3,285 bases of DNA from a phage. This document shows, one piece after another, positions 1 through 3,285 of this stretch. The DNA is taken from sequence record PZ195126.1; one strand, given 5' to 3'. The notes under the pieces are model-generated. The model saw only the letters and a list, made by a program, of their open reading frames with translations, ran no database searches and was not told the origin of the DNA. Positions within the stretch are counted from its first letter, which is position 1. Each line of letters opens with the position of its first letter. Both the position numbers and the translations under genes were made by a program.

Positions 1-50
1 ACCATGCCGTCAGGTTTAGGTGACGGTATATTCCATATACCGGAGGATCT
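1..50 (+). other. Partial 5' untranslated leader with a predicted stem-loop (stem 4-12 pairing with 21-29, 8-nt loop 13-20)
   Basis: No ORF consistent with the family layout; CCGUCA (7-12) is the exact reverse complement of UGACGG (21-26), and the stem extends to 9 bp with one G-U pair. Leader is shorter than the roughly 130 nt typical of MS2-like phages, so the 5' end is probably truncated. Confidence 0.5.
43..47 (+). promoter_or_regulatory. Shine-Dalgarno sequence (GGAGG) for the maturation gene
   Basis: GGAGG lies 3 nt upstream of the ATG at 51. Confidence 0.6.
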
Positions 51-1223
51 ATGTTTCCGAAGTCAAATATCGACAGAAATTACAAGGTTAAACTTATTTC
101 TTACGATAAGAAAGGGAATCTTGTTTCCGACGACTCTTTTGAGCAAGTCGAAAACTATCTCTTTCAAAATCGTTCGAATACGTATAAACCCGGTTATCTC
201 CGTCGCGACTTTCGAAGACCTACTAACTTTTGGAACGGCTATCGCTGTTTCAATCAGCCAGTTGGTACTTTCACTCGGAAACTCTCTGATGGTGGGAGAC
301 AAGTAGCTGATTATGGTATTGTGAACCCTAATAAGTTCACTGCCAATAGTCAGCACTTGGGGGACAACATGGTAATTTACCCTGGTCCCTTCTCTATAAA
401 TATTGATCAGCGTGCTTCTGTTGAAGTCCTCAATAAACTTTCACAATCCAACCTCAATATTGGGGTTGCGATTGCTGAAGCTAAGATGACTGCTTCATTA
501 CTCGCTAAACAATCTATAGCTCTCATCAGAGCCTACACTGCCGCAAGGCGCGGAAATTGGCGAGAGGTGTTTTCACAACTCCTCATCTCCGAACACCGTT
601 TCAGAGCTCCCGCTAGGGATCTCGGAGGTCGATGGCTCGAACTGCAGTACGGCTGGTTACCCCTTATGAGCGATTTGAAAGCCGCATATGATTTGCTTAC
701 GCAAACCAAATTGCCCGCTTTCATGCCCTTGAGGGTTACCCGTACCGTTGGCGGAACGCATAATTACAAAGTGCGTAACGTCGAATCTGCAGGGGATACT
801 TGGTCCTATAGCGATCGTTTGTCGGTGAATTACCGAATATGGTATTTCATTTCCGATCCACGTCTCGCATGGGCTAGTTCCCTCGGGCTTCTTAACCCTT
901 TAGAAATCTTTTGGGAGAAGACGCCCTGGTCGTTCGTTGTTGACTGGTTCTTACCTGTCGGTAATCTTATAGAAGCCATGAGTAATCCTCTTGGCCTCGA
1001 TATTATTTCCGGCACGAAGACCTGGCAACTCGAATCAAAACTTAATGCGACGCTTCCGGCTTCGGGTTGGTTTGGAACTGCAAAGTTATCTGCATATGCG
1101 AAAGCATATGACAGATCTACTTTCTATTCCTTCCCTACTCCTTTGCCGTATGTGAAGTCTCCACTTAGTGGTCTTCATTTAGCGAATGCATTAGCCTTAA
1201 TCAACCAACGCCTGAAAAGGTAA
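51..1223 (+). CDS. mat: Maturation (A/assembly) protein, 390 aa
   Basis: 390-aa ORF with TAA stop at 1221-1223. The translation contains blocks I recognise from the MS2 A protein (e.g. [62 protein letters not shown]...ALALI.QRL). First gene in the canonical levivirus order, with SD upstream. Confidence 0.95.
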
Positions 1224-1227
1224 TTAC

Positions 1228-1231
1228 GGAG
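1228..1231 (+). promoter_or_regulatory. Shine-Dalgarno-like GGAG for the coat gene
   Basis: GGAG lies 8 nt upstream of the coat ATG at 1240, in the short intergenic gap after the maturation stop. Confidence 0.5.
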
Positions 1232-1239
1232 TTAGCCAT

Positions 1240-1632
1240 ATGGCAACTTTACGCAGTTTCGTACTCGTCGATAATGGCGGTACGGGGAATGTTACTGTCG
1301 TTCCTGTTAGCAATGCCAACGGCGTCGCTGAGTGGCTTTCTAATAACTCGCGCAGTCAAGCTTATCGCGTGACTGCCAGTTATCGTGCGTCAGGCGCGGA
1401 CAAGCGCAAATACACCATCAAACTCGAAGTGCCGAAAATCGTCACTCAAGTTGTAAATGGTGTTGAGCTGCCTGTCTCCGCATGGAAGGCTTATGCCTCT
1501 ATCGACCTGACCATCCCTATCTTTGCTGCAACCGACGATGTGACCGTTATTTCCAAGTCACTTGCCGGCCTGTTCAAAGTTGGGAACCCTATTGCCGATG
1601 CCATCTCCTCTCAGAGTGGCTTCTACGCGTAA
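1240..1632 (+). CDS. cp: Coat (capsid) protein, 130 aa including initiator Met
   Basis: ORF MATLRSFVLVDNGGTGNVTVVPVSNANGVAEWLSNNSRSQAYRV...GNPIADAISSQSGFYA is near-identical, from memory, to the phage GA coat protein and clearly homologous to MS2 coat (FVLVDNGGTG, ANGVAEW, SRSQAY, LTIPIFA, GNPI). TAA stop at 1630-1632. Confidence 0.97.
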   Translation: MATLRSFVLVDNGGTGNVTVVPVSNANGVAEWLSNNSRSQAYRVTASYRASGADKRKYTIKLEVPKIVTQVVNGVELPVSAWKAYASIDLTIPIFAATDDVTVISKSLAGLFKVGNPIADAISSQSGFYA

Positions 1633-1823
1633 TGGGTCTGAAAGCAAAACATAAGGAAAACCTATGTTCCGGTTCACAGAGATCGAAAAGACTCTATGTA
1701 TGGATCGCACTCGCGATTGTGCTGTCCGATTTCACGTCTATCTTCAGTCATTGGATTTGGGGTCTTCTGATCCTCATTCTCCGGACTTTGATGGACTTGC
1801 CTACCTTCGTGATGAATGTTTAA
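1632..1823 (+). CDS. L: Lysis protein (L), 63 aa, overlapping the coat stop and the replicase 5' end in a third reading frame
   Basis: ATG at 1632-1634 shares its A with the coat TAA stop (UAAUG). Product MGLKAKHKENLCSGSQRSKRLYVWIALAIVLSDFTSIFSHWIWGLLILILRTLMDLPTFVMNV has a basic N-terminus and a hydrophobic C-terminal segment containing an LS dipeptide, as in MS2-type L proteins. Position between coat and replicase matches the levivirus layout; 63 aa matches the GA lysis protein size as I recall it. Confidence 0.8.
   Translation: MGLKAKHKENLCSGSQRSKRLYVWIALAIVLSDFTSIFSHWIWGLLILILRTLMDLPTFVMNV
1648..1668 (+). promoter_or_regulatory. Coat-protein translational operator hairpin enclosing the replicase start codon
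   Basis: 5'-AACAUA-A-GG-AAAA-CC-UAUGUU-3': a 6-bp lower stem, one bulged A (1654), two G-C pairs, and a 4-nt loop AAAA (1657-1660). The replicase AUG (1664-1666) sits in the 3' arm. Architecture matches the MS2 operator ACAUGAGGAUUACCCAUGU (bulged purine, 2-bp upper stem, tetraloop). Confidence 0.8.
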
Positions 1824-3262
1824 CCAAACATCCTTCACTTGGAGACAGTAATTCGGACGCACGCCGTAAGGAATTGGCATATGCCAAACTTATGGATAGT
1901 GATCAAAGATGCAAAATCCAAAACAGTAACGGATACGACCACTCCCATATCGAGAGTGGCGTACTGAACGGTATACTCAAGACCGCTCAGGCCCTTGTGG
2001 CAAACTTACTTACGGGTTTTGAATCTCACTTCCTGAACGATTGTTCATTCTCCAATGGAGCCTCACAAGGGTTCAAGTTGCGGGATGCAGCGCCGTTTAA
2101 GAAGATCGCTGGGCAAGCAACCGTTACAGCTCCTGCTTATGACATTGCCGTGGCCGCCGTTAAAACGTGCGCGCCGTGGTATGCTTATATGCAGGAAACG
2201 TATGGCGACGAGACCAAATGGTTTCGTCGGGTGTACGGCAACGGTTTGTTTTCTGTTCCGAAGAACAACAAAATAGATCGGGCTGCCTGTAAGGAGCCTG
2301 ATATGAATATGTACCTTCAGAAAGGGGCGGGATCTTTTATAAGAAAACGCCTTCGTTCCGTCGGTATAGATCTTAACGATCAAACGTGCAATCAGGAATT
2401 AGCCCGACTTGGCAGCATCGATGGTTCACTCGCTACTATTGATCTTAGTAGTGCTAGTGATTCCATTTCTGACCGTCTCGTCTGGGATTTACTTCCACCG
2501 CACGTTTATTCATACCTCGCTCGTATCCGTTCGTCGTTCACTATGATCGACGGGCGTTTACATAAGTGGGGTCTATTTTCTACCATGGGTAACGGCTTTA
2601 CGTTCGAACTCGAGTCCATGATCTTTTGGGCTCTTAGCAAGAGTGTAATGCTGTCCATGGGTGTTACTGGCTCATTAGGCATCTACGGTGACGATATAAT
2701 CGTTCCTGTTGAATGTGCCCCGACCCTCCTTAAGGTATTATCCGCTGTGAACTTTCTTCCTAATCAGAAGAAAACATTCACAACAGGTTACTTTCGCGAG
2801 AGTTGCGGTGCTCATTTCTTTAAAGGTGCCGACATGAAACCTTTTTACTGCAAGCGGCCAATGGAAACCCTTCCCGATGTCATGTTGCTATGCAACAGGA
2901 TAAGAGGTTGGCAGACCGTTGGTGGAATGTCAGATCCGCGGCTCTTCCCGATTTGGAAGGAGTTTGCTGATATGATTCCGCCGAAGTTTAAGGGTGGATG
3001 TAACCTGGATCGCGACACTTACCTCGTTTCACCAGATAAACCTGGTGTCACATTGGTTCGTATTGCTAAGGTACGCTCTGGTTTTAACCACGCGTTCCCG
3101 TACGGTCATGAAAATGGCCGTTACGTCCATTGGTTACATATGGGATCGGGAGAAGTTCTCGAGACCATATCCTCCGCCAGGTTTAGGTGCAAACCTAACT
3201 CGGAATGGAGAACACAGATCCCTCTATTTCCTCAGGAATTAGAGGCCTGCGTTCTCTCCTGA
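1664..3262 (+). CDS. rep: RNA-dependent RNA polymerase (replicase beta subunit), 532 aa
   Basis: 532-aa ORF with TGA stop at 3260-3262. Contains the palm motif YGDDIIV (GDD at 2687-2695), an upstream acidic motif IDLSSASDS (D at 2441-2443) and an SxMGNGFTFELES motif (around 2579-2617). Size and position match levivirus replicases. Confidence 0.97.
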   Translation: MFRFTEIEKTLCMDRTRDCAVRFHVYLQSLDLGSSDPHSPDFDGLAYLRDECLTKHPSLGDSNSDARRKELAYAKLMDSDQRCKIQNSNGYDHSHIESGVLNGILKTAQALVANLLTGFESHFLNDCSFSNGASQGFKLRDAAPFKKIAGQATVTAPAYDIAVAAVKTCAPWYAYMQETYGDETKWFRRVYGNGLFSVPKNNKIDRAACKEPDMNMYLQKGAGSFIRKRLRSVGIDLNDQTCNQELARLGSIDGSLATIDLSSASDSISDRLVWDLLPPHVYSYLARIRSSFTMIDGRLHKWGLFSTMGNGFTFELESMIFWALSKSVMLSMGVTGSLGIYGDDIIVPVECAPTLLKVLSAVNFLPNQKKTFTTGYFRESCGAHFFKGADMKPFYCKRPMETLPDVMLLCNRIRGWQTVGGMSDPRLFPIWKEFADMIPPKFKGGCNLDRDTYLVSPDKPGVTLVRIAKVRSGFNHAFPYGHENGRYVHWLHMGSGEVLETISSARFRCKPNSEWRTQIPLFPQELEACVLS

Positions 3263-3285
3263 TNNNNNNNNGANNNCNCCNGACG
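3263..3285 (+). other. Start of the 3' untranslated region, mostly ambiguous bases (N)
   Basis: Sequence after the replicase stop is ctgatNNNNNNNNgaNNNcNccNgacg; the genuine 3' UTR (usually over 100 nt and ending in CCA in this family) is not present. Confidence 0.6.

Follow-up and report, generated by a model that had tools for sequence, protein, structure and literature searches.

The 3,285-nt stretch of DNA analyzed here (sequence record PZ195126.1; hereafter, the window) is almost certainly derived, by way of cDNA, from the positive-sense RNA genome of an F-specific coliphage of group II (GA/BZ13-like) that belongs to Emesvirus japonicum in the family Fiersviridae and, within that species, to the GA subgroup rather than to that of KU1. 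It is a new sequence of a known phage at the level of the strain and holds nothing that is mechanistically new. As a slightly different strain of a well-known species it has little discovery value; what it adds is one strain-level variant, ~3–6% diverged, to the few full-length genomes available for group II. Sequences of F-specific RNA coliphages of this group date back to 1986, capsid structures have been solved, and the phages are in use as markers of faecal pollution from humans. The family Fiersviridae was formerly named Leviviridae, and the genus Emesvirus was formerly Levivirus.

Placement among the group II coliphages

The preliminary description of this sequence had proposed a GA-like, group II phage, and the nucleotide comparisons bear this out. 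By megablast, 99% of the window is covered at 94–96% identity by GA, DL20, and DL10. Identity to GA, the group II prototype (Enterobacteria phage GA, X03869/NC_001426), is 94.7% over 99% of the window, versus ~74–76% to the group I phage MS2 (Escherichia phage MS2, V00642, Emesvirus zinderi), which shows DNA similarity to just 12% of the window. A lack of similarity to Fiersviridae, or a coat protein identity below 40%, had been named beforehand as grounds for giving up the proposal; we found neither. One refinement is needed, in that the nearest named strain is DL20 and not GA. When compared over the window from end to end, nucleotide identity is 95.8% for DL20, 94.7% for GA, 94.2% for DL10, 85.7% for T72, and 85.4% for KU1.

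DL20 is a strain of Escherichia phage BZ13 (FJ483839; Emesvirus japonicum, genogroup II) that came from a clam in Narragansett Bay. It has the same four genes as the window, with the same lengths and spacing, and the 95.8% identity extends over window positions 1–3263. The two sequences differ at 138 nt, mostly silently (120 silent and 13 amino-acid-changing codons). The first 84 nt of the DL20 deposit are MS2-like, and this region lies outside the window. GA has the equivalent gene order, gene lengths (390, 130, 63, and 532 amino acids), UAAUG junction, operator hairpin, and lysis-control hairpin, and differs from the window by 171 nt and by one 1-nt indel in the 5′ untranslated region (UTR); the amino acid differences number 11 in the maturation protein, 3 in the coat, 4 in the lysis protein, and 13 in the replicase. 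Closer to the window than any other sequence found is contig ERR2217812_110 (L006) of the Logan assemblies, which is 97.2% identical over 3,263 nt without gaps. L006 and the window have identical coat proteins and identical bases 1–60, and their 92 nucleotide differences fall in 82 silent and 9 amino-acid-changing codons. Between the window and its relatives, substitutions are mostly silent and concentrated at third codon positions, as expected of a functional genome on which purifying selection acts.

KU1 and T72 (AF227250, FJ483838) belong to the same species and have the same gene set, but are only ~85.5% identical in nucleotides and 91% identical in the replicase protein. In both, 18 nt inserted behind the coat stop codon set the coat and lysis genes apart, and a second insertion, of 3 nt, also lies between coat and replicase; neither insertion occurs in the window, which has the coat/lysis overlap of the GA subgroup, TAATG, at 1630–1634. 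Replicase protein distances agree with this division: 0.9–2.4% to GA-subgroup strains, 8.7–8.9% to KU1 and T72, and 49% to MS2. We used distances since, in neighbor-joining analysis of the replicase proteins, the internal branches of the GA subgroup had bootstrap support below 10% and values for rooted clades were unreliable. Published genogroup II genomes are 3,458–3,486 nt long and have within-group replicase similarities of 92–98% (PMC3499819), in agreement with the values for the window.

The layout of the window is also that of an MS2-like single-stranded RNA phage, as had been proposed. The genes for maturation protein, coat, lysis protein, and replicase follow one another in this order, tightly packed, and each product matches its own levivirus Pfam family; open reading frames (ORFs) and Pfam matches place the maturation, coat, and replicase genes on one strand, as in the ~3.4–3.6 kb genomes of Fiersviridae/Emesvirus. 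The longest ORF on the – strand encodes 106 amino acids. The window has the features that separate Emesvirus from Qubevirus (Allolevivirus), namely a separate small lysis gene at the coat/replicase junction and a coat gene without a read-through (A1) extension: since the coat TAA is at 1630–1632 and the replicase starts 32 nt later, there is no space for a read-through domain. The window is assigned to Emesvirus japonicum by its high identity to GA/BZ13 in both nucleotides and proteins along the genome, and by its clear separation from group I. MS2 has the same genome plan: its replicase start likewise has an operator hairpin, and its lysis and replicase genes overlap. Protein identities to MS2 are 64% (coat), 51% (replicase), 49% (maturation protein, over residues 117–390), and 43% (lysis protein L). 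MS2 L contains 75 amino acids and starts 50 nt inside the coat gene, whereas the window lysis protein contains 63 and starts at the coat stop codon, and the MS2 genome is ~100 nt longer.

The window had been called near-complete, which holds for the four genes but not for the ends. Its 3,285 nt align to 3,284 of the 3,466 nt of GA, from GA nt 87 (base 1 of the window) to GA nt 3370 (base 3285), and thus lack ~86 nt of the 5′ end and 96 nt of the 3′ end of that genome. Because of these boundaries, the 5′ GGG-hairpin and the 3′ ...CCCA domain lie outside the window. L006 reaches 88 nt further 5′ than the window, and both GA and L006 end in ...ACCACCCA.

Genes and RNA elements

All features described below are on the + strand. 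Positions 1–50 form the 3′ part of the 5′ UTR and align with GA nt 87–135; they contain a hairpin (4–29) and a Shine-Dalgarno sequence, GGAGG (42–46), ahead of the maturation ATG, and an rRNA-binding site is annotated at the equivalent position in GA. The predicted fold of 1–50 has a 9-bp stem (4–12 paired with 21–29) and a free energy of –14.8 kcal/mol which, taken alone, is not significant relative to shuffled sequences (z = –1.6). C10 closes a G-C pair in this hairpin. An extra T at position 31 is common to the window and DL20.

The maturation (A, assembly) protein gene (51–1223) encodes 390 amino acids and matches Pfam PF03863 (Phage_mat-A, E 3e-62). Its product is identical to that of DL20 at 383 of 390 residues and to that of GA at 379. 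We considered an additional ORF at 4–306 (100 codons) as a fifth gene and rejected it, as only 28–60 codons are open in GA, DL10, T72, and KU1. The equivalents in these phages are shorter because of the 1-nt indel, the frame being open only with the extra T. When synonymous codons of the maturation gene were shuffled, 15% of the shuffled sequences had an ORF at least as long as that of the window. A 16-nt spacer (1224–1239), identical at all 16 positions to both GA and DL20, carries GGAG at 1228–1231, 8 nt before the coat ATG.

The coat (capsid) protein gene (1240–1632; 130 amino acids) matches PF01819 (Levi_coat, E 2e-38), and its product matches the GA capsid structures in PDB entries 1GAV and 1UNA (E 3e-79). 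According to the preliminary description, the coat protein is almost residue for residue that of GA. This is correct for 127 of the 130 residues, the exceptions being A59T, G79V, and E120D, but the exact match is a BZ13/TL2-type coat: the sequence is identical to UniRef100_Q2V0U3 (BAE54353.1, BAE54362.1), labeled "coat protein [Enterobacteria phage TL2]" within the Escherichia phage BZ13 taxon. The DL20 coat is identical at 129 of 130 residues. In an exact-sequence look-up against a collection of 15 billion proteins, the coat was the only one of the four proteins on record, with the maturation, lysis, and replicase proteins absent in their exact form. An exact 36-mer search of IMG/VR viral contigs gave zero matches.

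A hairpin at 1598–1622, just before the lysis start, corresponds to GA 1683–1707, which is annotated as having a "potential function in lysis gene control"; the fold of 1596–1624 has a free energy of –10.3 kcal/mol (z = –2.5). The lysis protein gene (1632–1823; 63 amino acids) lies in frame inside an ORF at 1482–1823 and matches PF11125 (Phage_MS2_lysis, E 2e-6). Its ATG shares one base with the coat TAA, and the last 160 nt of the gene are also part of the replicase gene, which is read in a different frame. Both length and position match those of the annotated lysis coding sequences of GA and DL20, and 62 of 63 residues are identical to the DL20 protein. The translation has a hydrophobic segment with an LS dipeptide.

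A putative translational operator to which coat protein would bind is found at 1648–1668, where a 5-bp stem, a bulged A, a 2-bp stem, and an AAAA loop enclose the replicase ATG (1664–1666). The fold of 1646–1670 has a free energy of –4.9 kcal/mol (z = –2.8), the hairpin sequence is invariant in all 11 GA-like sequences compared, and the equivalent element of GA, with the same sequence, is annotated as a coat-protein binding site (1733–1753). An Rfam scan of the whole window (E up to 1) returned the MS2 operator family, RF02359, at 1647–1667 and no other RNA family. The score of 18.1 bits is below the gathering score of 40, as expected for a model built on the MS2 operator.

The replicase gene (1664–3262), encoding the 532-amino-acid β subunit of the RNA-dependent RNA polymerase, matches PF03431 (RNA_replicase_B, E 1e-219). 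YGDD occupies residues 341–344, within GIYGDDIIV at 339–347, and the protein is identical to those of DL20 and GA at 527 and 519 of 532 residues, respectively. When folded alone, the 3′ end of the gene is not significantly more stable than shuffled sequences (z = –0.7). The window closes with the first 23 nt of the 3′ UTR (3263–3285), of which 13 are uncalled, these N's falling within the last 21 bases; the 10 bases that were called are the same in DL20 and in two Logan contigs.

Alternative origins of the sequence

Could the window be a natural mosaic, either of GA-like lineages or of phages from groups I and II? Group I-JS leviviruses are reported to recombine in nature (PMC3499819), and in a few 300-nt segments of our alignment (~800–1200 and 1800–2200) GA is slightly closer to the window than is DL20. 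However, maximum chi-square and sliding identity analyses with six reference pairs revealed no significant breakpoint (permutation p = 0.077–0.70), L006 ranks first or nearly first in similarity over the full length, and no segment approaches MS2. We therefore regard a mosaic as very unlikely.

An origin as a laboratory cDNA clone or an engineered construct, such as an expression plasmid or a vector for virus-like particles, is in our judgment extremely improbable. A sequence of an RNA virus given in DNA letters has necessarily passed through cDNA, and the truncated ends and the N's at the 3′ end would also fit a clone. Nonetheless, vector or other non-phage sequence is absent throughout, natural isolates align collinearly with the window over all of bases 1–3285, and there were no matches among 72,556 plasmids. 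In addition, the window differs by 4–6%, mostly silently, from every laboratory reference strain, and the sequences closest to it are environmental assemblies.

The reading of the window as a locus of cellular or prophage DNA with a mere resemblance to a levivirus is effectively refuted, as nothing beyond the presentation of the sequence as DNA favors it, whereas the full length of the window is 94–97% identical to RNA phage genomes, 5,426 complete E. coli genomes (28 Gb) and the same plasmid set contain no match, and promoter and terminator motifs occur at chance level.

Expression and strain-specific substitutions

If the window is the genome of a GA-like phage, how would its genes be expressed? 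Since it is 94–97% identical to phages for which these properties are established, the virion genome is probably positive-sense, single-stranded RNA, and infection is likely to occur through F-pili. By analogy with GA and MS2, the + strand would be the messenger RNA, and the four genes would be controlled at the level of RNA instead of by DNA signals, with the RNA elements having the regulatory roles established for those two phages. The maturation and coat proteins may each be translated from their own Shine-Dalgarno sites. Dimers of coat protein could bind the hairpin at the replicase start, shutting off replicase synthesis late in infection and nucleating packaging. Because the lysis AUG overlaps the coat stop codon by one base (UAAUG) and is preceded by a hairpin, the lysis gene is probably reached by ribosomes that terminate on the coat gene.

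Consistent with RNA-level control, DNA promoters and terminators had not been expected, and counts of such motifs are at chance level, with 5 σ70 promoter-like sequences versus 4.3 expected and 1 terminator-like sequence versus 3.1. The practical value of the sequence is in annotation: the window should carry the label of viral RNA (cDNA), only its + strand should be read, and a search for DNA promoters, terminators, or a cellular gene context would be out of place.

Finally, a few positions could be taken to mean more than strain-level variation. With C10 and the extra T31 as markers, the window and L006 might form a distinct circulating sublineage of GA-like phages, and A1672G in the window might alter the timing of lysis; more exotically, the ORF at 4–306 might be translated. 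We consider this reading very improbable. The A1672G substitution is private to the window and changes Asp14 of the lysis protein to Gly while remaining silent in the replicase frame.

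Gene content and RNA elements

The window represents a strain of a phage species that has long been known, its departures from reference genomes are ordinary strain-level variation, and we found no new element or mechanism within it. The preliminary description, which took it for a near-complete GA-like levivirus genome, is upheld in both observation and interpretation. Four genes lie on the + strand, with their coding regions complete, and each product matches a Pfam family: maturation (51-1223, 390 amino acids; Phage_mat-A, E = 3e-62), coat (1240-1632, 130 amino acids; Levi_coat, E = 2e-38), lysis (1632-1823, 63 amino acids, read inside an ORF at 1482-1823; Phage_MS2_lysis, E = 2e-6) and replicase (1664-3262, 532 amino acids; RNA_replicase_B, E = 1e-219). 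The ORF listing contains no - strand ORF longer than 106 amino acids. The tight packing with overlapping frames described earlier is also evident: 16 nt separate the maturation and coat genes, the coat TAA (1630-1632) and lysis ATG (1632-1634) have one A in common, and the lysis and replicase genes, in different frames, overlap over the final 160 nt of the former. The replicase has YGDD at residues 341-344, and the coat protein matches the GA capsid structures 1GAV and 1UNA (E = 3e-79). As expected, a basic N-terminal part of the lysis protein gives way to a hydrophobic segment; this contains an LS dipeptide, a motif also present in MS2 L.

The replicase ATG (1664) sits within an operator hairpin at 1648-1668 on the + strand (ACAUA-A-GG-AAAA-CC-UAUGU), with a bulged A, a four-base loop and a predicted folding energy of -4.9 kcal/mol (z = -2.8). 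GA has a potential coat-protein binding site annotated at the equivalent position, and the operator sequence is invariant across all 11 GA-like sequences compared. The sole Rfam match in the window, to the MS2 operator family RF02359 (1647-1667), scores 18 bits, below the gathering score of 40. The equivalent of the "lysis gene control" stem-loop annotated in GA folds at 1598-1622 (-10.3 kcal/mol, z = -2.5), and GGAGG (42-46) and GGAG (1228-1231) lie upstream of the maturation and coat ATGs, respectively. By analogy with established work on GA and MS2, coat dimers bound to the operator would repress the replicase, and the lysis gene would receive ribosomes that finish the coat gene at the overlapping stop.

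Relatives and classification

In a megablast comparison with 50,697 phage records, collinear matches spanned 99% of the window. Identity was 95.8% to Escherichia phage BZ13 strain DL20 (FJ483839), 94.7% to phage GA (X03869 / NC_001426), 94.2% to strain DL10 (FJ483837), 85.7% to strain T72 (FJ483838) and 85.4% to KU1 (AF227250), all classed as Emesvirus japonicum. In contrast, 80-odd MS2-type records matched only at 2232-2632, within the replicase core, at 74-76%. The earlier assignment to group II thus stands. In a multiple alignment, the gene boundaries are those of GA and DL20, whereas KU1 and T72 carry 18-nt and 3-nt insertions between the coat stop and the operator. Both insertions are absent from the window, which therefore belongs to the GA subgroup.

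The proteins give a similar picture. Identities to DL20 and GA, respectively, are 383/390 and 379/390 for maturation, 129/130 and 127/130 for coat (which the preliminary description had likened to that of GA), 62/63 and 59/63 for lysis, and 527/532 and 519/532 for replicase. Identity to MS2 falls to 64% for coat, 51% for replicase, 43% for lysis and 49% for the C-terminal two thirds of maturation. Replicase protein distances from the window are 0.9-2.4% for GA-subgroup strains, 8.7-8.9% for KU1/T72 and 49% for MS2. These values fit the published genogroup II ranges, in which replicase similarity is 92-98% among members of the group and about 50-53% between them and group I (PMC3499819).

Strain-level variation and alternative origins

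Exact-sequence look-up found the coat protein in the protein collection (UniRef100_Q2V0U3 / BAE54353.1 / BAE54362.1), where the sources place it in the BZ13 taxon and one accession names it coat protein of phage TL2; the exact maturation, lysis and replicase sequences were not found there. Five public assembly contigs encode the exact coat. The best, the Logan contig L006 (run ERR2217812), aligns with the window at 97.2% identity over 3263 nt and has no gaps; the other four give partial-length matches at 95.5-97.2%. This makes the window a distinct strain, 3-6% diverged from the closest relatives found.

Differences from relatives are largely silent, with 82 synonymous and 9 non-synonymous codon differences from L006, and 120 and 13 from DL20; in each comparison the third codon position takes most of the changes. 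Conservation peaks at 1601-1900, where identity is 96-99% to every relative; this extends to KU1 and T72, whose average over the other regions is about 85.5%. This stretch contains the operator and the lysis/replicase overlap, and its conservation fits multiple overlapping constraints. One A-to-G change at 1672, 4 nt downstream of the operator hairpin, is absent from the 10 other GA-like sequences; it leaves replicase Arg3 unchanged (CGA to CGG) but converts lysis protein Asp14 to Gly.

That the window is a recombinant is very unlikely: six maximum chi-square triplet tests gave p = 0.077-0.70, with L006 remaining the closest sequence, or nearly so, from end to end of the window. An engineered construct is slightly less probable still, as the window is free of non-phage sequence and had no megablast match among 72,556 plasmids. 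A cellular locus, already discounted in the preliminary description, can be dismissed: megablast against 5,426 complete E. coli genomes found nothing. DNA promoters and terminators had likewise not been expected, and both motif counts are at chance level (sigma-70 promoter-like sites, 5 versus 4.3 ± 1.8 in shuffles; terminator-like sites, 1 versus 3.1 ± 1.9).

The genome ends

Base 1 aligns with GA nt 87 and base 3263 with GA nt 3348, which places base 3285 at nt 3370 of 3466. Relative to GA, about 86 nt are absent at the 5′ end and 96 nt at the 3′ end; genogroup II genomes are 3458-3486 nt long (PMC3499819). At 3265-3285, 13 of 21 bases are N, a pattern that suggests sparse coverage, or a read end of poor quality, where the 3′ end is truncated. 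The 10 called bases past the stop codon agree with DL20, L006 and another assembly contig, L007.

A 100-codon + strand ORF at 4-306 begins with an ATG inside a 5′-UTR hairpin (4-29) and runs into the maturation gene in a different frame. We considered and rejected a fifth gene here: the ORF is open (100-106 codons) only with an extra T at 31, reaching 28-60 codons in other strains, and 15% of synonymous shuffles equal or exceed its length. We judged it non-coding. The extra T is present in the window, DL20, L006 and the contig L009 (SRR19670807), and absent from GA, DL10, T72 and KU1. C10, common to the window and L006 only, replaces a G.U with a G-C pair in the hairpin.

The window and the independent contig L009 start at the identical genome position, and the T72 record starts 3 nt later. 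Such coincidence points to a common primer site, or to assembly or reverse transcription repeatedly breaking off before reaching the structured 5′ end. Nucleotides 1-84 of the DL20 deposit, just upstream of the window start, are 82/84 identical to MS2 nt 1-82, whereas GA, KU1 and L006 have a GA-type 5′ end. The change from one type to the other falls at ACCATG, where the window begins. The DL20 5′ end may stem from a chimera or a primer in the deposit, or it may reflect a natural group I/II recombinant.
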